Source: Torpedo marmorata (lineage: Eukaryota). Taken from it: 64,000 nt of DNA. The stretch is taken from the NCBI GenBank assembly GCA_977017645.1, contig OZ360228.1, positions 23,126,001 through 23,190,000 on the forward strand. The letters run 5' to 3'. Made by a program: the position numbers and the translations under genes. This document shows, in pieces, positions 1,659-50,596 of the stretch (positions are counted from its first letter, which is position 1; the number at the start of each line of letters is the position of its first letter). The notes beneath the pieces were generated by a model. The model searched no databases and was not told the origin of the DNA. It worked only from the letters and a program-made list of their open reading frames with translations.

Positions 1659-1708
1659 CACCTTGCACCAGCAATGACAGATCAGAAGTCTTCGATGCCT
1701 CCACCCCG

Positions 1709-1773
1709 TCACTGGTCCCCGGGGACATCCACCTTATCGTAGATATAGCTCCCAACAACTCCAGTGTTGACCC
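1709..1773 (-). CDS. CRIP2: CRIP2-like exon 8 coding part ([21 protein letters not shown])
   Basis: tttgcag|GGGTCAAC...CAGTGA; stop TGA at 1709-1711. Confidence 0.93.
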
Positions 1774-7700: not shown

Positions 7701-10700
7701 TCATGGATTTAAATGTTGGGTTCACAGAGACAGCTGGGTGATTGCTGCCACAGACTTCATGTATTTAAATGTTGGGTTCACAGAGACAGCTGGGTGATTG
7801 CTGGCACAGACCATGGATTTAAATGATGGGTTCACAGAGACAGCTGGGTGATTGCTGCCACACATCATGTATTTAAATGTTGGGTTCACAGAGACAGCTG
7901 GGTGATTGCTGGAACAGACCATGTATTTAAATGTTGGGTTCACAGAGACAGCTGGGTGATTGCTGCCACAGACTTCATGTATTTAAATGTTGGGTTCACA
8001 GAGACAGCTGGGTGATTGTTGCCACAGACCATGTATTTAAATGTTGGGTTCACAGTGACAGCTGGGTGATTGCTGCCACACACCATGGATTTAAATGTTG
8101 GGTTCACAGTGACAGCTGGGTGATTGCTGCCACAGACTTCATGTATTTAAATGTTGGGTTCACAGAGACAGCTGGGTGATTGTTGGCACAGACTTCATGT
8201 ATTTAAATGTTGGGTTCACAGAGACAGCTGGGTGATTGCTGGCACAGACTTCATGTATTTAAATGTTGGGTTCACAGAGACAGCTGGGTGATTGCTGGCA
8301 CAGACCATGTATTTAAACGTTGGGTTCACAGAGACAGCTGGGTGATTGCTGGCACAGACCATGTATTTAAATGTTGGGTTCAGAGTGACAGCTGGGTGAT
8401 TGCTGCCACACACCATGTATTTAAACGTTGGGTTCACAGTGACAGCTGGGTGATTGCTGGCACAGACCATGTATTTAAATGTTGGGTTCACAGAGACAGC
8501 TGGGTGATTGCTGGCACAGACCATGTATTTAAATGTTGGGTTCACAGAGACAGCTGGGTGATTGCTGCCACAGACTTCATGTATTTAAATGTTGGGTTCA
8601 CAGTGACAGCTGGGTGATTGCTGGCACAGACCATGTATTTAAATGTTGGGTTCACAGTGACAGCTGGGTGATTGCTGCCACACACCATGTATTTAAACGT
8701 TGGGTTCACAGTGACAGCTGGGTGATTGCTGGCACAGACCATGTATTTAAATGTTGGGTTCACAGTGACAGCTGGGTGATTGTTGCCACAGACCATGTAT
8801 TTAAATGTTGGGTTCACAGTGACAGCTGGGTGATTGTTGCCACAGACTTCATGGATTTAAATGTTGGGTTCACAGAGACAGCTGGGTGATTGTTGCCACA
8901 GACCATGTATTTAAATGTTGGGTTCACAGAGACAGCTGGGTGATTGCTGGCACAGACCATGTATTTAAATGTTGGGTTCACAGAGACAGCTGGGTGATTG
9001 TTGCCACAGACCATGTATTTAAACGTTGCGTTCACAGTGACAGCTGGGTGATTGTTGCCACAGACCATGTATTTAAATGTTGGGTTCACAGAGACAGCTG
9101 GGTGATTGCTGGCACAGACCATGTATTTAAATGTTGGGTTCACAGAGACAGCTGGGTGATTGCTGCCACACATCATGTATTTAAATGTTGGGTTCACAGA
9201 GACAGCTGGGTGATTGCTGGCACAGACTTCATGTATTTAAATGTTGGGTTCACAGAGACAGCTGGGTGATTGCTGCCACAGACTTCATGTATTTAAATGT
9301 TGGGTTCACAGAGACAGCTGGGTGATTGTTGCCACAGACCATGTATTTAAATGTTGGGTTCACAGAGACAGCTGGGTGATTGCTGCCACACATCATGTAT
9401 TTAAATGTTGGGTTCACAGAGACAGCTGGGTGATTGCTGGCACAGACCATGTATTTAAATGTTGGGTTCACAGAGACAGCTGGGTGATTGCTGCCACACA
9501 CCATGTATTTAAATGTTGGGTTCACAGAGACAGCTGGGTGATTGCTGGCACAGACTTCATGTATTTAAATGTTGGGTTCACAGAGACAGCTGGGTGATTG
9601 CTGCCACACATCATGTATTTAAACGTTGGGTTCACAGTGACAGCTGGGTGATTGTTGCCACAGACTTCATGGATTTAAATGTTGGGTTCCCAGTGACAGC
9701 TGGGTGATTGCTGGCACAGACCATGTATTTAAATGTTGGGTTCACAGAGACAGCTGGGTGATTGCTGCCACAGACTTCATGTATTTAAATTTTGGGTTCA
9801 CAGTGACAGCTGGGTGATTGTTGCCACAGACCATGTATTTAAATGTTGGGTTCACAGAGACAGCTGGGTGATTGTTGGCACAGACCATGTATTTAAATGT
9901 TGGGTTCACAGAGACAGCTGGGTGATTGCTGGCACAGACTTCATGTATTTAAATGTTGGGTTCACAGAGACAGCTGGGTGATTGCTGGCACAGACCATGT
10001 ATTTAAATGTTGGGTTCACAGAGACAGCTGGGTGATTGCTGCCACAGACTTCATGTATTTAAACGTTGGGTTCACAGTGACAGCTGGGTGATTGTTGCCA
10101 CAGACTTCATGGATTTAAATGTTGGGTTCCCAGTGACAGCTGGGTGATTGCTGGCACAGACCATGTATTTAAATGTTGGGTTCACAGAGACAGCTGGGTG
10201 ATTGCTGCCACAGACTTCATGTATTTAAATGTTGGGTTCCCAGTGACAGCTGGGTGATTGCTGGCACAGACCATGTATTTAAACGTTGGGTTCACAGAGA
10301 CAGCTGGGTGATTGCTGCCACAAACCATGTATTTAAATGTTGGGTTCACAGTGACAGCTGGGTGATTGCTGGCACAGACCATGTATTTAAACGTTGGGTT
10401 CACAGAGACAGCTGGGTGATTGCTGGCACAGACCATGTATTTAAATGTTGGGTTCACAGAGACAGCTGGGTGATTGCTGCCACAGACTTCATGTATTTAA
10501 ACGTTGGGTTCACAGTGACAGCTGGGTGATTGTTGCCACAGACTTCATGGATTTAAATGTTGGGTTCCCAGTGACAGCTGGGTGATTGCTGGCACAGACC
10601 ATGTATTTAAATGTTGGGTTCACAGAGACAGCTGGGTGATTGTTGCCACAGACCATGGATTTAAATGTTGGGTTCACAGAGACAGCTGGGTGATTGCTGG

Positions 10701-13700
10701 CACAGACTTCATGTATTTAAATGTTGGGTTCACAGAGACAGCTGGGTGATTGCTGCCACAGACTTCATGTATTTAAACGTTGGGTTCACAGTGACAGCTG
10801 GGTGATTGTTGCCACAGACTTCATGGATTTAAATGTTGGGTTCCCAGTGACAGCTGGGTGATTGCTGGCACAGACCATGTATTTAAACGTTGGGTTCACA
10901 GAGACAGCTGGGTGATTGCTGGCACAGACCATGGATTTAAACGTTGGGTTCACAGTGACAGCTGGGTGATTGCTGCCACAGACCATGTATTTAAATGTTG
11001 GGTTCACAGTGACAGCTGGGTGATTGCTGCCACAGACCATGTATTTAAATGTTGGGTTCACAGAGACAGCTGGGTGATTGCTGGCACAGACCATGTATTT
11101 AAATGTTGGGTTCCCAGAGACAGCTGGGTGATTGCTGGCACAGACCATGGATTTAAACGTTGGGTTCCCAGAGACAGCTGGGTGATTGCTGCCACAGACC
11201 ATGTATTTAAATGTTGGGTTCACAGTGACAGCTGGGTGATTGCTGGCACAGACCATGTATTTAAATGTTGGGTTCACAGAGACAGCTGGGTGATTGTTGG
11301 CACAGACCATGTATTTAAACGTTGGGTTCCCAGAGACAGCTGGGTGATTGCTGCCACAGACCATGTATTTAAACGTTGGGTTCCCAGAGACAGCTGGGTG
11401 ATTGCTGCCACAGACCATGTATTTAAACGTTGGGTTCACAGAGACAGCTGGGTGATTGTTGGCACAGACTTCATGGATTTAGGGCCTGATTCGGCACTGT
11501 ATACGTAACTAACCCTATGGGATGGTCGTGAATAAACAGGATGGTTTTGTGGGATGGGCAGATTCAAGGAACCTGGAAATACCGCAGCACAACTCACTGG
11601 GGGCAGCTAGGAAAAACAGTCATACACACGGGCAGCGGGTGCACAAGGAGCAAGGTTACATGGTGTCCTCGGACCACAGTCGACAAGTACTCTCACCATG
11701 CTACAGAGAGGGCATGATGGCACTGTGGAACGATGCAGGGGAGTAGATAGTCAGGAGAACCTGGGGGTGGAAGGTGACCTCAGTGTTCAAAACCTCCGTG
11801 AACCAGGAAAACGGCCCCAACTGATGAACCAGAAACACCGGGTGCAGATTTAGTTGGGTGACTGGATGGAAAGCCTGCAAAAGCCGTCAGCAGTCATGGT
11901 CTTTTGAGGTAGAAGTTCAAGGCAGCACTGGATGGCACTTGAGACACGAGTTGTAGGGCCTGGGGACAAGACTGTTCTTACAGAGAATCGATGGGCCAAA
12001 TGGCTGCCTTCCAGGCTGTATTCAAAGGTGAATGGAAAAGGAGGCATGTTAAGCAGGCAGCCTTCTCCCTCAAGCTCGAGGGGAAACGCTGCCCCAGGTG
12101 CCTGCCTGAAATTGATTCTGTTTACCTTTTGGTCCAAACAGGATTCCGTAGCAGGGCTTGTGGCAGTAAGGGTGTCCGTCGTGCTGAATGAAGAAAAGGG
12201 AAAACAATTCAATAGGTACCAACCCTCAGCAGGCAGTTCAATTACATTCAGTGTCGCACCGGGTAGAGCCACAGACACAGCCCCAGGAACCCAGGTTCAA
12301 TCCCCACCTCTGGTGCCAATTTGTGTAGAGTTTGCACGTACTCCATGTGACCGTGTGGGCTTCCCCAAGGTACTCCAGTTTCTTCCCACATCCCAGAGAC
12401 GTGTGGGATAACTGGCCGCTGTAAATTGCCCTCCAGTGTGCGGGCGAGGGGTAGAATTGGGTTTGATGGGAATCAGAGAAAATAATGGTCGATGGTCAGC
12501 ATGGACTCGGTGGGCCGAAGGGCCTGTTGCCTCCATGCTGCGTGACTATCACCTAATCATCGGGCGATTGCCTCACTCCTGCTATGCTGTTGAGGCGGCC
12601 ACATCATTATCCCTTGTGTGTCACTCCTCCCACCCCCTCTCCATCTGTGCGTCCGTCCGTCTGTCTCTCCCTCCGTCCGCCTCTCCCCGTCCAAATGTCC
12701 TGGGGAGGTGAAGGACACGGGCTTTTGCCTTGCAAAGCTGCAGGGCTGAGAGAATGTCTCGGTGCTCACCGTGGCCAGCCACTTCAATTGCACACTCCCT
12801 GCCGCACCGACATATCTGTCCACGGCCTTGCACTGTCCATACGAGGCCACTCTTAAATTGGAGGAACACCTAATATTCCGTCTCGGCAGTCTCCAACCAG
12901 ACAGCATCAAGAGCAACTTCTCCAATTTCCGATAACCCCCTCCCCCAGTCTCCTCTTTCCCTATCCCTGTCTCCCTATCGCCATCCCCATCCCCGATCAG
13001 AGAACTACCCTTCTCGACCCTCTCCCCCATCACTTCTCAGCTCCTTTCTCTTCTACCCTCCCACCTGTATCCATCTGCTTGCCCGTGCTCCTCCCTCTTC
13101 CCTCACACCCCCCCCCCCTTTATTCGGGCGCCTGCCTGTTTTGGGCACACCAAAAGAAGGGCTCAGGCCCGAGATGCCGACTGCTTTTTGCTCTCCATGG
13201 ATGCTGTGTGACTTGCTGAGTTCATACAGCAGGTTTGTGTGCTGCACTGAGATACGGTGGCCTTACACACACAGCTCTGGCCGGAGGCACCTTATAACGC
13301 AGCCAAGCACAGCACATCAAGGCAACACCCCTGCCCCTGGGGCTTGCAGTGGGGCCCAGGCAGCAAGGCTTTGTGAAGTCTTCTACCATGAAGGTGGGTC
13401 AGTGGTGGGGAGCACCGGGTGGATGTGGCCCGCAGGCCCTGGGCCAGCGGGGGTCGCGGGCGAGGCCCTGGGCCAGCGGGGGTCGCGGGCGAGGCCCCAC
13501 TCAGTCAGTGCGAGGCCCTGGGTCAGTAAGTGTTGTGCGCGCCAGGCCCTGCCCGATCAGCTTTCTTGCCACAAGGACAGACAGGAGCAGGACAGACAGG
13601 AGCAGGACAGACAGGAGCAGGCCAGACAGGAGCAGGCCACTCAGCCGCCCCCTCCGCCTATCCATTTTTTTTTTGGAATATTTTATTTTTAAAGACCACA

Positions 13701-16700
13701 ATATAAACAGAAAATATACAATTTACAACTATATACAACATTATCGTTAAACTCTCCCTCCCTCCCCCAACTGAAAAAAAGAAAAAATATACAAAAGAAA
13801 AGAAAGAAAATGAAAAACTAAACGTACCGTCACTGATTACATTGATTTTTCAATCTTTTTGGAGGCGCCACACCGTTAAATATTTCTACGCTATATTGTA
13901 TTGTACCTTAGGGTTTGAATTACAACTGGACCCCAGTATACTCCAGGTATAGTTGCCACACCTTTACAAATGTATCGTGTCTATTTCTGAGGTTATATGT
14001 AATTTTCTCCATAGGAATACAGCTGTGCATTTCTGCTGACCACCAAGTGATTTGAAGGGGGGAGTCGGACTTCCAAGTAATTGCTATGCATTTTTTTGCT
14101 AAGGACAAAGCAACCAGCACAAATTAAATTTGGAATTTAGATCATTTGTATCTTATGTCCATTAAATTTCCAGAGATACAACTCCGGGTCCAGTGGAAAG
14201 GCCACCCCCGTAATTTTAGTTAGTATATTAGATATATGATACCAAAAGGGTCGTACCTTTGCACAGGGCCAAGTGGAGTGCAGGAAAGTTCCAATTTGCC
14301 CACCACATCTGAAACACAGTTCCGATATTTCGGATTTTCCCCTCCCCACTATTCTGCTCCACCATTCAATATGTCCATGGCTGATCCATGCTGGTCTCAA
14401 CTTCCCATCCAGGACACTGAACTCCTCAATCTTTCAAATATTTCCCCATTTCCCCTCAACTACATCCAGTGATCCAACGCTGCGGGCAGGGAGTGCCAAA
14501 GATTCACCCCCGCTGACAGAAGACATTTCCACACACCCCAGTTTAATTGGCAGGGCCCAACTTTTGCAATTCTCCCCTTGTTCACGACTCTCCCCCTGTT
14601 GGAAACATCTGCACACCTGCCTTGTGAGGGTCCTTCAGGATATCCATGGTTCGAGTAACATCACTCCTCATTGTTCTAAACCTCGAGTAACAGACCCAAC
14701 TGTTGTTTCAGGAATTAGCCTGGTGAATCAACCCTTGGCCTGCCTCTAATTCTCCAACGTGCCTTTTGTTTAGTAACGGGACCAGAACCGTGTGCCGTAT
14801 TCCACGTGTGGTCTCACCAACACCCTGTTGCCACTATGACACAACCTCCCAGTTTTACACCCGAACCCCTTTACAAGAAAGGCCAACAGTCAGTTTGCTG
14901 CCTTAACTACGTGTCGGCCTTCCCTACTAACTTGTAGTGCTTCACGCACTAGAACGGTTGGCGTAGCGCTGTTACAGCGCCCGTGTTGACTGTAAGGAGT
15001 TTGTACCTTCTCCCCGCACCTGCGTGGGTTTTCCCCGGGGGCTCCGGTTTCCTCCCACCATTCGAAACGTACCGGGGATGTAGGTTAATTGGGTGGCACC
15101 GGCTCGTGGGCCGAAACGGCCTGTTACTGTGCTGTATGTCTAAATATAAAATTTAAATAACATCGAGGTCCCTCAGAACTTCACCCATCAGCAGTCTCCT
15201 TCCATTGATATGATAACGTGGCATTTGATTTCTCACACAACTCTATTGGCCAGGATTTCTCCATGCTGCAGAATCACAAGGCCCCCGTTACCCTTCGTCT
15301 TCTCCTGCTGCTATCCCCAGTGCCTGTGGGCTCAATCCCCTCCTCCTATCGTGAGGAATCAGACCGCACAAAATCAATCATACCCAGCTCCGGGCCCATT
15401 CCCCACACTCCCAGCAGAGTCCCACCACAACCAGCCCCATTCCCCACTCTCCCAGCAGTCCCACCACACCCAGTCCCATTCCCCACACTCCCAGCAGAGT
15501 CCCACCACACCCAGCCCCATTCCCCACACTCCCAGCAGAGTCCCAACACACCCAGGCCCATTCCCCACACTCCCAGCAGTCCCACCACACCCAGTCCCAT
15601 TCCCCACACTCCCAGCAGAGTCCCACCACACCCAGCCCCATTCCCCACACTCCCAGCAGTCCCACCACACCCAGTCCCATTCCCCACACTCCCAGCAGAG
15701 TCCCACCACACCCAGCCCCATTCCCCACACTCCCAGCAGAGTCCCACCACACCCAGCCCCATTCCCCACACTCCCACCACACCCAGTCCCATTCCCCACA
15801 CTCCCAGCAGAGTCCCACTACACCCAGCCCCATTCCCCACACTCCCAGCAGAGTCCCACCACACCCAGCCCCATTCCCCACACTGCCAGCAGAGTCCCAC
15901 CACACCCAGCCCCATTCCCCACACTGCCAGCAGAGTCCCACCACACCCAGCCCCATTCCCCACACTCCCAGCAGAGTCCCACCATACCCAGCCCCATTCC
16001 CCACACTGCCAGCAGAGTCCCACCACACCCAGCCCCATTCCCCACACTGCCAGCAGAGTCCCACCACACCCAGCCCCATTCCCCACACTCCCAGCAGAAT
16101 CACAGGATGCTTTGATGTGAAATGCGTGTCTCTACCTCAGTATTCTGTGAGACAGATTGATCTGAAATGGAGGACTCAAACAGCAGTGCACATGAAGATT
16201 TATGACCACCATCCAATCAGCTGTGAGCTGCTGAGCCGGGACTGATGACCAGTTTTTAATGAGAATTATTTTTTGCCTCCGGAGCTTCGTGGGCTTATGC
16301 TGTAGCACTGGTAGGCCCGCTAACTCCTGGCTGCACTGAGAGGCAGTCCCTGGCCTTTGGTACAACTCGTATTGGAGCTCCCATTGCACACGTTTCCTAG
16401 TGCGACTCTCCACTCACCTCCGCATGGCTGCCCGGACTCAGAGTCTTGTTGCATCGCTCACATCGCAGGCAGGGGCGGTGCCAGTCCTTCCCCAGGGACG
16501 TCACTTTCTCGGCTGGAGGATAAACAAAAGGTGGTAGTGCACTCAGCCAATAGCTTCGACGTTCAGCCCTCTTCCCAAAGCAAGGTCCAAGAGGGACAAC
16601 AAAATTGCTGGAGGGATTCAACAGGTCAGTTAGCATCCAGGTGGCCTGTCAACCTTTCCTATCGGGACCCTTTATAGAGACAGACAAAAGGACATGACGC

Positions 16701-19700
16701 GAAACGTTGACCTGCCATCTCTCCCCATGGAAGAAGGTACAGGAGCATCGAAACCAGCAGTGCCAGGCTGGGGTGCAGCTTCTTCCCACAGGCTATGAGA
16801 CTGATGAACAGTTTCCTCTAACCGTAAAGTCATCTCAAATATTTATATATGTTTATTTTGATTATTCAAGATTCCAATATTCCTTTATTGTCATGTAATA
16901 GTACAGAACGTAATATTACACGAAACTGCCTTCTGCCTGCCGAAAGGTAAATAGTGACGCTCGGTGCCCCTAACAGTGAGAGAGAAAGAGAAGCAAAAGG
17001 GAGTCCATTCATAGTCACAAAGTGTCTATGGATTTGCCTCCTGCACTCCTCCAGCCTTTGCAGCTGCACAGACTCCTGTTCAATTCATCGGCAACCTGAG
17101 CTCCACATCCAACCCTCCCAGCAGTCCCCCCACAGCACCCGAGTCCCTTCTTGCCCTCCGCACCCTCTCAGATCCCGGCTCCGATACCTGGTTCTCATGA
17201 GCCAGCCTCCAGCAGCCCGCACCCCATGCGGGTCTCCCGAAGGCGTCCACAACGGCCTGTGTAGGGTCCCTCAGTCGCTCAGCCCCTCGCTGGTCCGTTG
17301 CTGTGGCTCGTCTCCTCTGCTTCTCCTTCTCAACACAGGATGTTCTCCCCGTTTCTGGTCCGTCTGCAACCCGGAGTCTGCAACCCCTCGTGGCCGTTCC
17401 CGAGCACAGGCGCCGCCATCTTGTGCAGAGATCTCCACGGTTGCTGTTTAATGCACTTACGGAGCCGCCGGCATTAGGACCCAGGCGGTTGAACCGTGCA
17501 GTGGTCTCCGTCTCTTCATCTCCCCCAACTTCTTCTTACCTGCACCCAGCCACCTCATGGCCCCTCCCTTGCATCCCCCTCCTTTTTTTCTCGATAAATC
17601 CCCTTCCTACTTCAGTCTCGATAAAGGGCCCCTACCCGAACCGTTGACTGACCGTTTCTCACAGATGCTGTCTGACATGCCGAGTCCCTTCAGTTACTCT
17701 TTGTTTGGGCGGGGGGACCTGCCTGGTTGAAGGGGGCGAGATCGTGAACACGTCGGATGTAGCACATCCTCTGACTCAGCTGTCCCCCACCCCCCGGGGA
17801 CAGAGTCCTCCACTCTCCAGCTAACATCATGGCTCGACAGCGAGGGAGATCGCCCCTGCAGCCGAGGAACTGCACTCACCGAAGTAGACCTTCTTCTCAC
17901 ACCTCGGGCATGCGTTGGGCTCCCCGGCAAACGTGGTCATACTTGAGGCTGGGGGGGGGGGGGAGGTGAGAGGAGGCTTGTTAGTCTCATCATCAGCTGA
18001 ACAGGCCACCCGGTACCCCAGTAACATGCAGGCATCGCACCCCTGAAGAAGCAAAAAATGTCAAATCTGCTCTGCTATCACGGAAAGGTTAAGGCTGGGA
18101 CGAGGCAGGTAAAGGGGGTGGCGGGCTACCCTCCAGGAGGGGGGTTGGCAGGGAGCCATCACTGCGGGAATGGGAAAGAGAGGGCTGGAAGATTTCAGGG
18201 CATTCCCACGCTGTTGGTCCTCCATAATTCCGTACGCCGGTGTTTAACCACCACCGGTGCCTGCCGTCCGTGGGCTTTGTGCTGGCAGGAATCTAAAACC
18301 AGAGGGAACAGCTAGCTGCAAGGCGAGAGGGAACGATTTGAAAAGTGATCCGAGGGGCTGGTTTTGACACAGAGGGTGGTGGGTATATGGAACGAGCTGC
18401 CAGAGGCAGTGGTCAAGTCAGCTGCAATTGTAATGTTCAAGACATTTGGATAAGAACGTGGATTGGAAAGACTTAGAGGTATGTAACCAAATGCAGGCAA
18501 ACAGGACTAAATGATGTTGGATTCTTGGTAGGCAGGGCCGAGCTGGGCTGAAGGGCCTGATTCTGTGCAGTACACCTCTACGAAATCATTTCTACTGACG
18601 AGTCCATCTCAGCTCAGGATGAGCCCATTCCCCCACTAATATGGTCTATAATCTATTCTCTCCACCCAGATTGATTTTTCGGGGGGGGGGTGGAGGTGGG
18701 GAGACTGAACACAGCTGGTATAGACTCGACAGGCTGAATGGCCTCTTTCCTTCTGCAACTATCATTCTCTCCACCCTCCCATCAGCTCCCCCCAGGTTTC
18801 TACGCCTACGTGTTCTTTGGGGCGGCACGGTTAGCATAGAGGTTAGCGCAACGCCTTTACAGGGCCAGCGATCGGGACCGGGGTTCGAATCCTGCACTGT
18901 CTGTAAGGAGTTTGTACGTTCTCCACGTGTCTGCATGGGTTTTCCCCGGGGGCTCCGGTTTCCTCCCACCGATAAAAACGTACCGGGGGGGTGAAGGTTA
19001 ATTCAGTGTAAATTGGGAAGCATGGGCTAGTGGGCCGGAATGGCCTGAGGTCGGGGTTGGACAAGTTCCCTGGAGCCGTAAGGGAACAGCCACGATGTGA
19101 GGCATCATGCTGCAAGTGAGACGGAGCAGGAGATGTGGAGGAGGCAGTCCTGTGGAACCGGGGCAATGAAGTGGAGGCTCTACTGCTGGCACATCTGGGG
19201 AAGAGGGCAGAGCAGGCCGGTGGGGTGTGGGTCAGTAGTGGGGTCAGGGGGGGGGGGGGGCGCCGGTCGGTCGTGTGGTGGGGGGCGCCGGTCGGTCGTG
19301 GGGTGGGGGAGCCGGTCGGTCGTGGGGTGGGGGCGCAGGTCGGTCGTGGGGTGGGGGCGCCGGTCGGTCGTGGGGTGGGGGCGCCGGTCGGTCGTGGGGT
19401 GGGGGCGCCGGTCGGTCGTGGGGTGGGGGCACCGGTCGGTCGTGGGGTCGGAGTGTTGGACTGTGTTAGGGTCACACCAGGCAGAGTTAGTTCGGAGGGA
19501 GGGGAGGGTTGACGATGGGGTGTTACAGTCGGAGTTGTTCCCCAGTGAAACCCATATCACGGGACTGAAGGAGAGGTCTCCGGACCGTGCCTGGGCTCCC
19601 ATTTCCTCGGACAGAGCTTGACCATCCCACCCCAAGCCCGAGGAGAGCAGGGGGTTGGCGACGGGGCTACTTACCTTTGTTGATGCCCCGGGAGGGGGCG

Positions 19701-22700
19701 GAAGGTCTCGGCGCGGGAGCCCTGACGGAGGGGTCTTCAGGAGTCGGGGCTGGCTGCGAGCTGGAGGCCGGCGGGGGCTGGTCGTAGATGTAGGAACCAA
19801 AGCCTCCGATGTTCACACCTGCAACAGGAGGCAGAGCTGTGGGTGGGGATGGGTGACCGTGCGGAGCTGGCTACCCCGCGGGGACACCGCACTCTGCACG
19901 GGGGCTGGGAGCAAGTCACCAAAGGAGGAGCAAGTAGGAGAGTTGCTCAGCTCAATGGGGTGGGAGAGGGTGAGGGGGGAGAGGGGGGAGAGGGGGGAGA
20001 GGGGGGGAGAGGGGGGGAGAGGGGGGGAGAGGGGGGGAGAGGGGGGGAGAGGGTGGAGAGGGGGGGAGAGGGGGGGAGAGGGTGGAGGGGGGAGAGGGTG
20101 GAGGGGGGGAGAGGGTGGAGGGGGGGAGAGGGTGGAGGGGGAGGAGAGGGTGGAGGGGGGGGAGAGGGTGGAGGGGGGGAGAGGGTGGAGGGGGGGAGAG
20201 GGTGGAGGGGGGAGAGGGTGGAGGGGGGGAGAGGGTGGAGGGGGGGAGAGGGTGGAGGGGGGGAGAGGGTGGAGGGGCGGAGAGGGTGGAGGGGCGGGAG
20301 AGGGTGGAGGGGGGGAGAGGGTGGAGGGGGGGAGAGGGTGGAGGGGGGGAGAGGGTGGAGGGGGGGAGAGGGTGGAGGGGGGGAGAGGGTGGAGNNNNNN
20401 NNNNNNNNNNNNNNNNNNNNNNNNNNNNNNNNNNNNNNNNNNNNNNNNNNNNNNNNNNNNNNNNNNNNNNNNNNNNNNNNNNNNNNNNNNNNNNGGAGGG
20501 GGCGAGAGGGTGGAGGGGGGGAGAGGGTGGAGGGGGGGAGAGGGTGGAGGGGGGGAGAGGGTGGAGGGGGGGAGAGGGTGGAGGGGGGGAGAGGGTGGAG
20601 GGGGGGAGAGGGTGGAGGGGGGGAGAGGGTGGAGGGGGGGAGAGGGTGGAGGGGGGGAGAGGGTGGAGGGGGGGAGAGGGTGGAGGGGGGGGGAAGAGGG
20701 TGGAGGGGGGGAGAGGGTGGAGGGGGGGAGAGGGTGGAAGGGGGGTGGAGGGTGGAGGGGGAGGGTCTGTTGGATGCCCCGGACCAGGCCAACAGTCGCT
20801 GGTGAACTCACACTCACCCTTCGGCCCAAACAAGGTGGCGTAACACGGCTTGTGACAGTAGGGCTTATCGTCGTGCTGCGGGAAGGACATTGTGTGAGCT
20901 GCTTACACCACTGGCCTCCCACCCCCTCCCTCTCCTGCCCACCCACCCCTGGCCCTTCCCTCCCACCATCGGCTACTCTGCCCTCCCCTTTCACGGCCGA
21001 CCTCTTCCCCTCTGAATGCCCCTTCACTCCACCCACCACCAGCCTTGTCTATCACACTCCTTTCGACCCCTCCCCTTCCCTCCCCATGACAAACCGCCTC
21101 TCCACCCCCTCACCCTGGCCCCACCCTCCCGTACACGGGCCCCACTCATCCGAAACCCGAGCAGAGGAATCTGGGGGAAGTTGATGGGATGCGAGAGACC
21201 ACCCTCACGACCCCCGCCAGCCGGGCTGGAAGCCACCATCCAACGAGAGTGGCCTCGTGCCTTAGGAGATCAGGTCGAGTGGGAGTCTGACCAGGGGTGG
21301 CGGTTGTCCCCCGTACCCGTCAGGCCGTGTTGTGACCCGGTGTGGAGGGGGCACTCACCGCTGCGTGGCTGCCAGGGGTCAGGATCTTGTTGCAGCGCTC
21401 ACACTTCAGACAACTTGTGCCAGTCCCTGCCTAGCGACGTCACCTTCTCGGCTGCAACAAGAAGAGTGCCAGTCACAGGCATTGCTTCAAAAATAAACCT
21501 TCGTCTTCAAAGTACATCGACAAACCACACAATCAGGACCTCTGTCTCCATGTCTATTGTGCTTTCAAACTAATGCTCAAGCCCAGCTTGCTGTGGCCCA
21601 GCCCCAACACAGCTGGCGGTGGTTCCAGCTGCTGCCTTCCCATCTCCACAGCTGGCGGGGGCGGGGTTTGCAGCTGTTGCCCACCCATCTCCACAGCTCA
21701 TTGACCAGCTGTTGCCCACCCCTCCACAGATGGCTGGGCTAGCTTCAGTTGTGACCCAACCCCAACTCCACAGATGTCTGGTCTTGTGCTCCGGATACGC
21801 CGATGCCACTCACAGTTTCCACTTTAATCAATACAAACGTGTGAGAGGACGTTACACAGGACGTGGTCTCTCAGTGGCAAGAACAGCTTTAGACTGCGGT
21901 CCTTCCTCACAGAGCCTTTACAGTGCCTGCTTAGTATATTCCTCGGCATATTGTCCTGCACTCTGGAACGTGTCAGTCAGCAACATTCATGGACGTCCCT
22001 TAACACCGGAAAACCAAGTCTTCCAGCAGACCAAGGACGAGTTGATGACCTTCCAGCAGCGGTTGGCGTTCATCGCTGGGAATGGTCTGAAGATGAGGTT
22101 TAGACTCCCCTACCCTGGGGACTGAGATTATTCACCTCATCTACATCCCCTGTGAGGTAATATACCCCGATAAGGTCACTCGACAGTCCCTTACAGTCCA
22201 GGAAGAAATGTCCCAGGTGACCAATCTCTCCAGTCCCAGCATTATCCTTGTGAATCCATTCCACCATGCTTCCGGATTAATGAGTGAAGTTGTGCTCCGT
22301 GTGCACCCACAGGGATGAGGGACTGCACTGAGAAGGCCACTGTCAGAAGGTCTCTGAAAGGGGCAGGGTTGCTTTCCATGCTCCCCCACCCCCCACCCCA
22401 ACTTTTGAGTTGGTGGGTGTCAATGGCAAAGCCGACACTCATTGGCCATTCCGAATGGCCCCACTCCCTTGGAATCCACTGGCCAGGGTGGGTCTGGAGT
22501 CACATAGATACCAGAACAGAAAAGGATAGATTTCCTCTCCTGAATGTCAGAATCATACAATCACAGCAGGCCCTTCGGCCCAACAAGTCCATGCCAACCA
22601 AGTTGGCGCTCCGGGCTAGTCCCATTTGTCTGCATTTGGTGCATATCCTTCTGAACCCTTCCCCTCCATAAATCTGTCCAAATGCCTTTGAGGTGTTGAG

Positions 22701-46700: not shown

Positions 46701-49700
46701 CCATCCTGTGTGTAAGTTAACCCCTCAGGATCCTGTTAAATCTCTCCCCCACCCCCCCCCCCCAAACCTTAAATCCATGTCCTCTGGTTACCACTGCCCC
46801 TACTCTTGGCAAAAGACTCTCTGCATTCGCCCGATTTTGTACACCTCTTGCGATCACCCCTCATCCTCCTGTAATCCCAGGAATAAAGCCCCAGCCTGCT
46901 CAACCTCTCCCTGTAGCTCAGGCCCCCGAGTCCTGGCAATATCCTCGTAAATCTTCTCTGCACCCTCTCCATTTTCCTGTGGCACGGTGACCAAAACTGA
47001 ACACAATCCTCCAAATGGGGCCCCACCAACATCTTATAAAACTGTAACATGACCTCCCAACTTCTGTACTCAATACTCTGATTGATTTACTCTAAATTTT
47101 CTTCACACTCCTTCAATCTTGTTGATATCTTTCTTGTAGGCAGGTGAACAAAACTGCGCACAATACTCGAAATTTGGCCTAATGTCTTAGACAACTTTCA
47201 CCATAACATCCCAAGTCCTGTATTCAATACTTTGATTTTTTTGAAGGCCAATGTACCAAAGCTTTCTTTACAATCCTATCTACCTAAGATTGGCGTATCT
47301 CGGCATGGTTGGCGTAGCGGTGAGCGCAACGCTTTACGGCATCAGCGATCGGGACGGGGGTTCGAATCCTGCGCTTTCTGCAAGGAGTTTGTACGTTCTC
47401 CCCGTGTCTGCGTGGGTTTTCCCCGGCGGCTCCGGTTTCCTCCCACCCTTCAAAACGTACGTAGGGGTGTAGGTTAATTGGGTGTAGGTTAATTGGGTGT
47501 AAACTGGGCGGCATGGACTCGTAGGCCAAAATGGCCTGTTACCGTGTTGGATGTCTAAATGAGATTTGGCTCTTAATAATGGTTTAATGTTCAACCAGTG
47601 TCCAAAAGTTCCACGCTTCCAATCTAAGCATGGCTCAAATGTAAGAGCATATTTATCCCCAGTGTGTTGTCTCCCATTCTTCCATCTCTGGTGGGCTTGC
47701 AAATAGAGCAGTGCCAATAAGCAGTCGAGTTGAGAGAATACTTTTTAATAAAAAGCTAACAGCTCTGCTGTGGATCTGGCGAGAGGGAGTTGGTTGGTAC
47801 CAGGGAGTGTAATGAAGAAATGTTAGAATCACAGCAAGTACACATTCAATGTGCAGCTAACAGACCCACACTCACCTGCCACCTACAAGTGTAGTGACTA
47901 AAAAAAAGAAACATTCACAGCAAGAAGTGCCCTTAGGCAATGATGAGAGATGAATCAAGGCAACTCAAAAAGACCGACTACTTGAGAATGCATTTCCTGA
48001 CCAGCAATCAGTGCGGATGTGTCTGGTAAGAAATTATGAACAATGTGCAGAACATAACTCTACAGAACCCATGCACAAAAGAACAGCATTCCTTCATTCA
48101 ACACAGCCTCTTGTGATACCAGGTGTCACTTGATAAGTGGCTACTTTTGACTTCTCCCACCACACTCCCTAATTATTACTTAACGAGGCTCTTAAAAGTC
48201 ACCATTGACTGTTTCCAAATCATCGCTTCGGAGAGAACATTCCAGGCCACATCCCACTCACTGACTGAAACAAATTCCACATCTTCTGTCCCATTCCTAT
48301 CCTAATAACGCACTGGCTATATTCGTTGCAATCTTGCTCAATTTCCCAGCAGTTGCGTCCAATCTCAGCCAATGCCCACAGAGTATAAACCAGAACGGCC
48401 CCAAAAGACACAGGCATCGGCCAGACATTGCAAGGATACAGCACTTAATTCAGAGCCTGTCACATAATTGTTCAATAGTACCCACCAAATCCCTGCTCGA
48501 TGTGTCGGAGGAGGGGGAAGTCGCCAGGGTGTGATCTACCCATCTCAAAATTAAAGAGCAGAAATTCCTCCGCTTACCGAGTAAAATTAGAACTCGTTTA
48601 AAAAATATGGCCAGTCACCCTGTTCTGAAAAGTACATCATTTAATTTTAACTTTCAAGAGAGAATCAGCTAAAGACCTCCGGCTTCCCGGGGTTACAAAC
48701 CAGCCCACTGCGAGGGGAACAATTGTGACCAAAGGCTTTGTAATTCTCGCTCAGCAACCCGCCCGGCGTCTGTTTGACCACTCTTATTTCACGAGTGTTT
48801 CGTCAAATACGCAAAACAAAATCCGATACCATCTATTATTTATTGAAGCGAACACCCCCCCACCCCGGTTCAATCTAGGAGCAAGGCGGGTCGCTTTCAC
48901 CGGTCAACCAGCCTCTGGAGCTGCTCCAGACTTGGACCCTGAGTGCTGACACCGCCCTCCTCCACGACAGAGGTCCCGGGGCAATGCCGAAACCCACCTC
49001 CCCGACCCGCCAGGTGCAGAGAGGCGGCTGCAAGCCGCAACAGCCCCAAGGAGCAGCGGCACGCCAGGACAGCTGCCAGCGGCAGGCCACTCGGCCCGCT
49101 GCCCCCATGTTAGCCCCCTAAAGTAGCGCAAATCCCACCGGACACCATTCCCTGCGCCGTTAGCCGCAGCCAGACTGTTAGTGAGGGATCGCCCACTAGA
49201 AGTGGGGCTCGAAACCGCCCCCCACCCTTCCCCGAGCAGGGTCCCTCCTCTCAACCCCCCTCCCCGAGCAGGGTCCCTCCTCCCAGGGTCCCTCCTCCCA
49301 GGGTCCCTCCTCCCAGGGTCCCTCCTCCCAACCCCCTTCCTCCCAACCCCCCCTCTTCCTCTCAACCCCCCCCTCTTCCTCTCAACCCCCCCCTCTTCCT
49401 CTCAACCCCCCCCTCTTCCTCTCAACCCCCCCCTCTTCCTCTCAACCCCCCCCTCTTCCTCTCAACCCCCCCTCTTCCTCTCAACCCCCCCCTCTTCCTC
49501 TCAACCCCCCCCTTCCTCTCAACCCCCCCCCTCTTCCTCTCAACCCCCCCCTCTTCCTCTCAACCCCCCCCTCTTCCTCTCAACCCCCCCTCTTCCTCTC
49601 AACCCCCCCCTCTTCCTCTCAACCCCCCCTCTTCCTCTCAACCCCCCCCTTCCTCTCAACCCCCCCCTTCCTCTCAACCCCCCCCTTCCTCTCAACCCCC

Positions 49701-50596
49701 CCCTCTTCCTCTCAACCCCCCCCTCTTCCTCTCAACCCCCCCCTCTTCCTCTCAACCCCCCCTCTTCCTCTCAACCCCCCCCTCTTCCTCTCAACCCCCC
49801 CTCTTCCTCTCAACCCCCCCCTCTTCCTCTCAACCCCCCCTCTTCCTCTCAACCCCCCCTCTTCCTCTCAACCCCCCCTCTTCCTCTCAACCCCCCCTCT
49901 TCCTCTCAACCCCCCCTCTTCCTCTCAACCCCCCCTCTTCCTCTCAACCCCCCCTCTTCCTCTCAACCCCCCCTCTTCCTCTCAACCCCCCCTCTTCCTC
50001 TCAACCCCCCCTCTTCCTCTCCTCACCCCCCTCTTCCTCTCCTCACCTCCCCTCAGTCCTTTCTCCTCTCACCCACCCACCCCCTCCCAGTCCTTTCTCC
50101 TCTCACCCACCCACCCCCTCCCAGTCCTTTCTCCTCCCACCCACCCCCTCCCTCCCAGTCCTTTCTCCTCTCACCCACTCCCCCTCCCTCCCAGTCCTTT
50201 CTCCTCTCACCCACTCCCCCTCCCTCCCAGTCCTTTCTCCTCTCACCCACCCACCCCCTCCCTCCCAGTCCTTTCTCCTCTCACCCACCCACCCCCTCCC
50301 TCCCAGTCCTTTCTCCTCTCACCCACCCTCCCTCCCAGTCCTTTCTCCTCTCACCCCCCCTCCCTCCCTCCCAGTCCTTTCTCCTCTCCTCCTCTCACCC
50401 ACCCACCCCCCTCCCTCCCACCCAGTCCTTTCTCCTCTCATCCCTCCCCCCCCAGTCCTTTCTCCTCTCACCCCCCCCCCTCCCTTCTCCTCTCACCCCC
50501 CCCCCCTTCTCCTCTCACCCCCCCCCCTCCCTCCCAGTCCTTTCTCCTCTCACCGAAGTAGACCGTCTTGTCGCACTTGGGGCACTTGGATGCCAT
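1709..50596 (-). CDS. CRIP2: Cysteine-rich protein 2-like (two LIM domains), 8 coding exons: 50554-50596, 21359-21451, 20818-20875, 19675-19818, 17880-17948, 16418-16512, 12126-12183, 1709-1773; 2-nt frameshift in exon 2 as assembled
   Basis: Spliced translation: [27 protein letters not shown][fs][54 protein letters not shown]...[99 protein letters not shown]. This closely resembles vertebrate CRIP2. All introns are GT-AG. The CDS totals 625 nt; restoring 2 nt gives 627 nt = 208 aa. CRIP2 versus crip2-like/CRIP3 orthology cannot be settled without a tree. Confidence 0.9.
1800..2105 (-). mobile_element. CR1-type LINE 3' fragment
   Basis: ETRTRG...[13 protein letters not shown] motif typical of the CR1 ORF2 C-terminus. 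Confidence 0.8.
2106..2728. repeat. 33-bp minisatellite (aaaccccactgggacccccgtgcgtccagcccc), ~18 copies
   Basis: Direct inspection; 11-aa periodicity in the ORF track. Confidence 0.95.
2735..3416 (+). mobile_element. L1-clade LINE 3' end (ORF2 C-terminus, 3'UTR, A-rich tail)
   Basis: LSLEKIR...F..TW..F..YF motif, AT-rich UTR, aataaa and (aaat)n tail. Confidence 0.75.
3670..3830 (+). mobile_element. Degenerate V-SINE body hosting the 54-bp array (tail resumes at ~11481-11510)
   Basis: gctgtctgtgtggagtttgcacattctc...gctccagtttcctcccac V-domain. Confidence 0.75.
3831..11480. repeat. 7.65-kb minisatellite, 54/56-bp unit (aaatgttgggttcacagwgacagctgggtgattgytgscacagac[tt]catgkattt), ~140 copies, in intron 7
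   Basis: Direct inspection; 18-aa periodic ORFs. Confidence 0.98.
12126..12183 (-). CDS. CRIP2: CRIP2-like exon 7 ([19 protein letters not shown])
   Basis: attcag|CACGAC...AAAG|gtaaa; 58 nt. Confidence 0.95.
12270..12550 (+). mobile_element. Older V-SINE copy
   Basis: ggttcaatccc B-box, V-domain, tail ggactcggtgggccgaagggcctg. Confidence 0.8.
12765..13250 (+). mobile_element. Penelope-like element 3' fragment (GIY-YIG C-terminus and terminal repeat)
   Basis: Degenerate ASHFN...[21 protein letters not shown]...FSNFR*, then gaagggctcaggcccga. Confidence 0.7.
13430..13640. repeat. Short tandem repeats (27-bp x2-3; 15-bp gacagacaggagcag x4)
   Basis: Direct inspection. Confidence 0.8.
13665..14335 (-). 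mobile_element. L1-clade LINE 3' fragment
   Basis: [18 protein letters not shown] zinc knuckle; [10 protein letters not shown]...FVKVWQ; poly-T at ~13665. Confidence 0.85.
14955..15160 (+). mobile_element. tRNA-derived V-SINE (young family), internally deleted
   Basis: Matches the other copies of this family in the window. Confidence 0.85.
15385..16098. repeat. 39/41-bp minisatellite (ccccacactcccagcagagtcccaccacacccagccccatt), ~17 copies, intron 6
   Basis: Direct inspection. Confidence 0.95.
16418..16512 (-). CDS. CRIP2: CRIP2-like exon 6 ([32 protein letters not shown])
   Basis: ctccag|CCGAG...GCGGAG|gtgag; 95 nt. Confidence 0.95.
16864..17480 (-). mobile_element. GC-rich non-autonomous retroposon with atgacaataaa/ttgaat tail
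   Basis: Similar to 55980-56810 and 23230-23745. Confidence 0.65.
17880..17948 (-). CDS. CRIP2: CRIP2-like exon 5 ([23 protein letters not shown])
   Basis: cccag|CCTCAAGTATG...TTCG|gtgag; 69 nt. Confidence 0.95.
18820..19048 (+). mobile_element. tRNA-derived V-SINE
   Basis: A-box, ggttcgaatcc B-box and V-domain. Confidence 0.9.
19258..19450. repeat. 24-bp minisatellite (ccggtcggtcgtggggtgggggcg), ~8 copies
   Basis: Direct inspection. Confidence 0.95.
19675..19818 (-). CDS. CRIP2: CRIP2-like exon 4 ([13 protein letters not shown] plus Pro-rich linker)
   Basis: ttgcag|GTGTGAAC...AACAAAG|gtaag; 144 nt, open, phase 1-1. Confidence 0.93.
19962..20766. repeat. G-rich ~17-bp tandem repeat (gagggtggaggggggga) in intron 3, interrupted by an assembly gap
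   Basis: Direct inspection. Confidence 0.95.
20395..20494. other. Assembly gap (100 N)
   Basis: Run of N. Confidence 1.
20818..20875 (-). CDS. CRIP2: CRIP2-like exon 3 ([19 protein letters not shown])
   Basis: ccgcag|CAC...AAGG|gtgag; 58 nt. Confidence 0.95.
21359..21451 (-). CDS. CRIP2: CRIP2-like exon 2 (LIM1 middle; 93 nt, 2-nt deletion)
   Basis: ttgcag|CCGAGAAGGTGACG...CACGCAGCG|gtgag. Reads [13 protein letters not shown], then the frame shifts to [18 protein letters not shown]. Confidence 0.9.
22780..23045 (+). mobile_element. tRNA-derived V-SINE, near full length, with AT tail
   Basis: ggcacggttggcgtggcggttag...gattcgaatccc...ggcctgttaccgtgcagtatgtctaaatttaaa. Confidence 0.9.
23230..23745 (+). 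mobile_element. GC-rich non-autonomous retroposon
   Basis: Shares caggtatcggaaccggg and the gacaataaa tail with 55980-56810. Confidence 0.65.
24100..24960 (-). mobile_element. CR1 LINE 3' fragment (RT C-terminus and 3'UTR)
   Basis: [19 protein letters not shown]...[10 protein letters not shown]...[11 protein letters not shown]. Confidence 0.9.
25765..26250 (+). mobile_element. Penelope-like 3' fragment
   Basis: Similar to 12765-13250. Confidence 0.65.
26875..27080 (-). mobile_element. V-SINE 3' part
   Basis: Reverse complement of the SINE family consensus. Confidence 0.9.
27649..27805 (+). mobile_element. V-SINE 5' half (interrupted by L1)
   Basis: Ends at ccgttcaaaatgt; resumes at 31214. 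Confidence 0.9.
27806..31213 (+). mobile_element. 5'-truncated L1-clade LINE with disrupted ORF2 (RT and C-terminal zinc knuckle)
   Basis: [34 protein letters not shown] and CDRC...HMFWLC motifs; multiple stops and frameshifts; A-rich tail. Confidence 0.95.
31214..31306 (+). mobile_element. V-SINE 3' half
   Basis: aaacgtaccgggggtgtagg...gtatgtctaaattttaaa. Confidence 0.9.
31307..31640. repeat. C-rich degenerate tandem repeat (ccgccccagcctcca)
   Basis: Direct inspection. Confidence 0.8.
33745..34200 (-). mobile_element. Degenerate Rex1/Babar-type LINE fragment (another at ~31790-32050)
   Basis: [11 protein letters not shown]...[15 protein letters not shown], homologous to the ORF at 45990-46535. 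Confidence 0.75.
34835..38960 (-). mobile_element. Near full-length but disrupted CR1 LINE: ORF1 (Cys-rich zinc finger plus SGNH esterase) and ORF2 (APE endonuclease plus RT)
   Basis: ORF1: CVAC...[25 protein letters not shown]2: [46 protein letters not shown]. Confidence 0.95.
39960..40527 (-). repeat. 568-bp near-identical direct copy of 38252-38819 (CR1 ORF1 5' part) inside a Penelope-type terminal repeat
   Basis: Constant 1708-bp offset; only two substitutions seen. Confidence 0.92.
42965..43325 (+). mobile_element. Penelope-like 3' fragment
   Basis: [30 protein letters not shown]-like translation. Confidence 0.7.
43327..44745 (-). mobile_element. CR1 LINE 3' portion (RT)
   Basis: [33 protein letters not shown] and FADDTK motifs. 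Confidence 0.95.
45560..46673 (+). mobile_element. Rex1/Babar-type LINE 3' portion, nested in a minus-strand CR1 3' fragment (45425-45560 and 46674-47085)
   Basis: [35 protein letters not shown] and [11 protein letters not shown] motifs; tail aataaaggtgacttgactt. Confidence 0.9.
47302..47560 (+). mobile_element. V-SINE
   Basis: Matches the family consensus. Confidence 0.9.
49250..50045. repeat. C/T-rich ~20-bp tandem repeat (ctcttcctctcaacccccccc)
   Basis: Direct inspection. Confidence 0.95.
50046..50553. repeat. ~33-bp minisatellite containing the exon-1 donor motif (minus strand gtgagaggagaaaggactgggaggg)
   Basis: Direct inspection. Confidence 0.9.
50554..50596 (-). CDS. CRIP2: CRIP2-like exon 1 coding part ([14 protein letters not shown], phase 1)
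   Basis: Strong Kozak context gcggccATGG; 43 nt; donor TTCG|gtgag. Confidence 0.95.

Follow-up and report, generated by a model that had tools for sequence, protein, structure and literature searches.

Does the ray Torpedo marmorata carry a broken CRIP2 gene, or does the break belong to its assembled sequence alone? The question is raised by a stretch of 64,000 nucleotides on scaffold C40 of a 6.2-Gb assembly (the whole stretch analysed, hereafter the window), in which a CRIP2-type gene with eight coding exons on the minus strand is interrupted by a frameshift in exon 2. Its coding parts are laid out as follows.

50554..50596, minus strand: coding exon 1 (43 nt), with the start codon and the first two Cys of LIM1; no differences from Narcine.
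21359..21451, minus strand: exon 2, 93 nt as assembled and 95 nt in the contig of a relative.
20818..20875, minus strand: exon 3 (58 nt), intact; a scaffold gap lies 324 bases away.
19675..19818, minus strand: exon 4 (144 nt), intact, encoding the Gly-rich segment and linker, 577 bases from the gap.
17880..17948, minus strand: exon 5 (69 nt), carrying the in-frame Met117, the next ATG past the premature stop.
16418..16512, minus strand: exon 6 (95 nt), encoding LIM2; the internal paralog of exon 2.
12126..12183, minus strand: exon 7 (58 nt).
1708..1773, minus strand: coding part of exon 8, ending in a normal stop.

An AATAAA motif lies near position 965 in the exon 8 region, and CRIP2 read through the break is 208 aa long. 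Intron 1 spans 29 kb. Long intronic tandem arrays with units of 54, 41 and 24 bp, together with CT-rich tracts abutting exon 1, were seen at window positions 8000-11469, 15395-16098, 19251-19448 and 49318-50558.

The break itself is defined by two features within exon 2.

21411..21412, minus strand: site of the 2-base deletion; the relative has AG behind plus-strand position 21411, and parts of the Phe28 and Cys29 codons are gone.
21399..21401, minus strand: premature stop at codon 32 (coding nt 94-96); the spliced frame yields 31 aa.

A preliminary description of this DNA had set the 93 nt of exon 2 against the 95 nt of exon 6, and the exon coordinates bear this out. The 31-aa product and its stop at 21401-21399 were reproduced by splicing the exons, and the remaining exons and splice sites proved as clean as that description had it: all seven introns are GT-AG, and exons 3-8 form a single open frame up to the normal stop. 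The deletion lies in neither a homopolymer nor a dinucleotide run, and it has two equivalent placements, that is, a 1-base microhomology. In the assembled gene the residues of LIM1 are complete in kind, with the frame broken. The 31-aa peptide would retain Cys5, Cys8 and His26, three of the eight LIM1 zinc ligands in the CRIP-type LIM pattern. Rescue by splicing was considered and rejected, as skipping exon 2 alone brings a stop after 17 aa, the in-frame skips of exons 2-3, 2-4 and 2-5 (157, 109 and 86 aa) never restore LIM1, and the nearby alternative AG sites take away 5 or 8 nt and leave the frame broken. No evidence of programmed frameshifting was found at the break.

To place the gene among its relatives we relied on protein similarity, so that the assignment to CRIP2 is one by resemblance. 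A protein search gave at least 120 matches; all those listed are either unnamed LIM proteins or go by the name CRIP2 or CRIP2-like. Among named proteins the nearest is that of Narcine bancroftii, an electric ray: its CRIP2 (cysteine-rich protein 2; CRP4), XP_069773395.1, shows 11 differences in 206 compared residues when the two broken codons are masked. By exon, these differences number 0 in 63 residues for exons 1-3, 6 in 48 for exon 4 (the linker), 2 in 74 for exons 5-7 and 3 in 21 for exon 8; exons 1-3 and exons 5-8 were compared by these protein differences. The domain model PF00412 matches the exon 6 peptide of the window and two stretches of Narcine CRIP2. Thr40, Ser162, Ser165 and His172 are common to the window and Narcine and differ in most other sharks and rays. 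Unlike Narcine, the window is without two bases at Phe28/Cys29, and its Met117 is Thr in that species.

Residues around the break were scored in 15 chondrichthyan proteins, namely 14 of the 15 listed members of an ortholog cluster of 29 and one of three Callorhinchus entries; a 92-aa isoform was left out, being without LIM1. The break site of LIM1 is intact in all 15. Cys29 is preceded by Lys-Phe in 14 of them and by Arg-Phe in the other, and Lys-Phe also occurs in 121 of 140 two-LIM proteins, so that the Leu which the preliminary description expected here was mistaken and the residue is Phe. The same description had read "GRDW" and "HAA" as signs of decay. Both are ordinary among sharks and rays: Arg23 is present in 13 of the 15 proteins, and exon 2 ends in Ala-Ala in four, Ala-Ser in nine and Ala-Glu in two (a Glu-to-Ala/Ser change in 13). 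We therefore rejected relaxed selection as a reading of these extra substitutions, since other sharks and rays have the same residues. No further decay or relaxation was detected in the residues, the exon and intron substitutions or the splice sites of CRIP2, a comparison with little power against a very young loss.

An intact version of the exon was found in one public DNA run. It proved to be genomic and to come from a relative that differs from the assembly by about 2.5% (six unique contig pieces, together 2240 bases, have 57 differences, a figure calculated without repeat-derived pieces and one 31-base match). This divergence suggests that the source of the run is a closely related species and not the assembled one. 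A 493-nt contig of the relative, at depth 8, spans 21272-21641 of the window; its exon 2 is 95 nt long and has the Phe-Cys codons restored. Against the assembly it shows no substitutions in the 93 exonic bases and 11 in 277 bases of flanking intron, along with two intronic indels. The Fisher test of exon against intron gives p = 0.039, or p = 0.096 when only the 8 listed differences are counted. Because the relative has the intact exon, the deletion is derived and younger than the split between the two. An old lineage-specific loss of LIM1 is thereby excluded. This disposes of part of the preliminary description, which had offered consensus error, segregating null allele and lineage-specific loss of LIM1 as the three options: the first two stay live, and the third, as an old event, finds no support, to judge by the match to Narcine, the relative's exon and the shared residues. 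Had exon 2 been neutral since the split, about 1.8 substitutions would be expected and the probability of zero would be 0.16; a young loss therefore stays compatible with the data. We also observed that the relative has two bases fewer in a G5 run at window positions 21347-21351 (bases 8-12 of intron 2), which may reflect divergence or a second local consensus error.

Further searches bear on the copy number of the exon. A DNA search of the genome with exon 2 gave one match and no alternate haplotig, and no second exon 2 was found elsewhere in the surrounding 360 kb, the interior of the gap being unreadable. At the protein level, the genome search matched exon 6 and the pair of CRIP1-like exons and, more weakly, one locus each on C2 and C11, which we take to resemble CRIP3 and a CSRP gene. 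In a search of a protein collection for a protein of the species, the window's linker peptide gave no match at E <= 10 among 102 candidates, and short fragments over exon 2 gave two matches there, both unrelated vertebrate ones.

Close to the break, the assembly has two features of note, both in intron 3.

20395..20494, no strand: scaffold gap of 100 N between exons 3 and 4, to which the preliminary description makes no reference.
19958..20761, no strand: GA-rich tandem array with a 17-bp unit, flanking the gap on both sides.

The deletion lies about 917 bases from this gap. Within 360 kb around CRIP2 there are three gaps, of which two are in GA-rich repeats, and a random site would fall within 1 kb of a gap with a chance of about 1.7% (3 gaps x 2 kb / 360 kb, the window's own gap counted). 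In the same 360 kb, four further long tracts of purines or pyrimidines were assembled free of gaps, and one CRIP1-like exon is intact although a different gap begins about 265 bases away. Runs of G7 are uniform in 12 of 12 pattern-matched units of the array on the exon-2 side, a count that skips a few irregular units visible in the sequence, and in 12 of 15 on the other side of the gap. Compared with each other next to their gap, the CRIP1-like copies show one indel within 1163 bases of it on one side and two indel openings within 667 bases on the other, too few to judge whether indels are in excess there.

Accuracy farther afield was gauged from protein-domain matches. For the domain 7tm_1, 137 of the 147 matches scored cover the domain in one frame with no stop; these are the best 147 of 7598 candidates and so biased towards intact genes. 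Two of the other ten hold a stop. By type, seven of the ten have ends that would fit an intron, two are truncated or rearranged duplicates and one is a duplicate with an in-frame stop; none of the ten has a small-indel frameshift in the matched domain. For Frizzled, 7 of 46 matches are full-length and open, the others being either fragments or exons from split genes.

These matches gave some observations of their own. About 31 of the 46 PF01534 matches (L017-L021 and about 26 more) are confined to the end of the Frizzled domain. Five such ends were examined; they begin at a common point and from there have 92-93% mutual identity for 0.5-1.8 kb. L017 is 93% identical over 1.7 kb to the 3' end of the intact Frizzled gene in L009; on this sequence evidence, it looks like the end of a Frizzled gene has been spread by a mobile element. 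A cluster of eight GPCR genes at C39:197.1-197.9 Mb (L032, L034, L035, L044, L045, L048-L050), presumably chemokine-receptor-like, includes one with an in-frame TAG. There are also two broken GPCR duplicates, which we take to be somatostatin-receptor-like: L067 (C78:19083729-19087235) is truncated, with 99.7% identity to L040, and L069 (C1:70050507-70054010) has its 3' part inverted relative to L031.

On C40 itself, two single-LIM CRIP1-like genes lie on the minus strand 100-150 kb beyond CRIP2 exon 8. The name CRIP1 would suit them as members of that family, and human CRIP1 also lies downstream of CRIP2 on the same strand. In the human arrangement MTA1 sits next to CRIP2; a PF17226 match was found on C40, but 6.9 Mb from CRIP2. 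The two CRIP1-like genes are tandem copies, both intact (L054-L059): copy A at C40:23027704-23001214 encodes 78 aa and copy B at 22987761-22973802, with a gap in its intron 1, encodes 77 aa. They are 97-98% alike over most of their aligned flanking DNA and have 18 non-synonymous and 2 synonymous differences, including a cluster where exons 2 and 3 join, at the place of a Gly-His-Ala-x-His stretch that is conserved in CRIP2. This pattern suggests positive selection or relaxed constraint after duplication.

Based on this evidence, it seems probable that the two-base deletion is a consensus error and that CRIP2 is otherwise an ordinary two-LIM gene. The main argument is one of place: a true mutation would fall so close to a gap with a chance of only about 1.7%, while errors are expected to gather there. 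The lack of decay elsewhere in CRIP2, the relative's intact exon and the intact break site in all 15 chondrichthyan proteins favour the same explanation. In such a scheme, PacBio HiFi-type reads would lie behind the assembly, coverage would drop towards the repeat, and a read left uncorrected in the probably thin coverage at the contig end, about 900 bases from the gap in the GA-rich repeat, would have supplied the deletion; the animal would then produce normal 208-aa CRIP2. Low coverage of this kind is known, as HiFi coverage falls at long A/G-rich low-complexity sequence (PMC7545148; bioRxiv 10.1101/2021.07.02.450803), and of the low-coverage loci in the T2T human assembly about 80% were associated with GA (bioRxiv 10.1101/2021.07.02.450803). 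Several points speak against an error: there is no homopolymer at the site, the G7 runs are uniform, exons 3 and 4 are nearer the gap yet intact, the CRIP1-like exon beside another gap is intact too, four long tracts were assembled free of gaps, and the assembly looks accurate elsewhere. A real allele therefore keeps substantial odds. It would be a young loss-of-function allele, probably heterozygous and captured in the assembled haplotype, arising by slippage at a short CT/TC overlap, with its transcript largely degraded or restarting at Met117. We regard this as possible, though we would not lean on it. A non-homopolymeric deletion with 1-base microhomology suits such an allele, the local consensus looks clean, and a gene unchanged elsewhere would be expected of a recent allele and of an error alike. 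Loss of CRIP2 is also tolerated in knockout mice (PMC8466836) and in homozygous zebrafish mutants (PMC11904032). However, such an allele has no reason to sit near the gap, and the single match to exon 2 means that the assembly holds no second haplotype showing an intact partner.

The remaining explanations make the deletion either a property of the species or one of an incomplete locus, and the weight that we give to all four is a judgement and not a computed posterior. A recently fixed, species-specific loss of full-length CRIP2 would leave no product, or a single-LIM protein of 92 aa (from a restart at Met117) or 86 aa (from a transcript that skips exons 2-5), and we think it improbable. It can draw on the zero exon substitutions, which have a probability of 0.16 under neutrality, on the next ATG, which is in frame and yields 92 aa as in an annotated stingray isoform X2, on the two CRIP1-like genes downstream, and on a stop that, at nt 94-96, belongs to the initial 150 nt, a stretch in which restart can occur and spare the transcript (PMC13043745). 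Against it stand the lack of any further disabling change in the exons and splice sites, the intact exon of the relative and of the 15 chondrichthyan proteins, the replacement of Met117 by Thr in Narcine, so that the restart is not conserved, and a similar zebrafish frameshift that left about 10% of the mRNA (PMC11904032). Nor did any loss of CRIP2 in a vertebrate come up among the papers listed by our literature search, which concerned plants, most subscription journals being outside its coverage. A bolder version, in which a very recently fixed frameshift turned two-LIM CRIP2 into a single-LIM CRIP1-like protein beside a duplicated and fast-changing CRIP1, as part of a reshuffling of the CRIP cluster, seems very improbable to us. 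We give hardly any credence to the proposal that the gap conceals a tandem duplicate of exons 2-3, with the intact copy unassembled and the visible copy dead. In its favour, exon 3 is separated from exon 4 by a gap of unknown size, and close by the CRIP1-like gene has been duplicated in tandem, one of its two copies likewise containing a gap. However, the same 17-bp unit runs on at both sides of the gap, no second exon 2 turned up in the 360 kb or the genome search, the visible exon 2 keeps clean splice sites, and the relative has one contig at a depth of 8, like its other unique contigs (4-9).

What the locus means depends on which of these explanations applies. If consensus error is correct, as we favour, CRIP2 is to be annotated as intact and the base polished, and the case counsels caution over gene-loss claims near GA-rich gaps. 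A segregating allele would add another case to the null alleles that are tolerated. A fixed loss alone would be notable, given that CRIP2 has effects on the vascular tone of mice and on how veins develop in zebrafish (PMC8466836, PMC11904032); Crip2 knockout mice, studied as adults, had mildly lower blood pressure (PMC8466836). Were the frameshift real, it would most likely silence the whole of CRIP2 and not LIM1 alone, because a CRISPR frameshift in exon 2 of zebrafish crip2 cut mRNA to about 10% of wild type, with vein plexus defects in homozygotes (PMC11904032). The products that could still be made are predicted to be a 92-aa LIM2-only protein by restart at Met117 and an 86-aa single-LIM protein by the in-frame skip of exons 2-5.

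Some known systems invite comparison. The 92-aa protein would resemble "cysteine-rich protein 2 isoform X2" of Hemitrygon akajei (XP_072896532.1, 92 aa), which starts at a Met equivalent to Met117 and contains LIM2 only; that isoform is an NCBI annotation in another species and is independent of any frameshift. The zebrafish crip2 mutant is likewise an exon-2 frameshift with a stop within LIM1, and homozygotes were obtained (PMC11904032). In contrast to the ray deletion, a feature of the assembled sequence, the zebrafish mutation was engineered and verified, and its product has 45 aa (PMC11904032). The errors reported for long-read assemblies fall mainly in homopolymers and 2-mer repeats, which received about two-thirds of the edits in T2T polishing (bioRxiv 10.1101/2021.07.02.450803), whereas the CRIP2 deletion is in neither and lies about 650 bases outside the repeat. 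What it does share with the false frameshifts and low coverage described in such reports is a contig break within an A/G-rich tandem repeat and a coding indel close by (PMC7545148; bioRxiv 10.1101/2021.07.02.450803).
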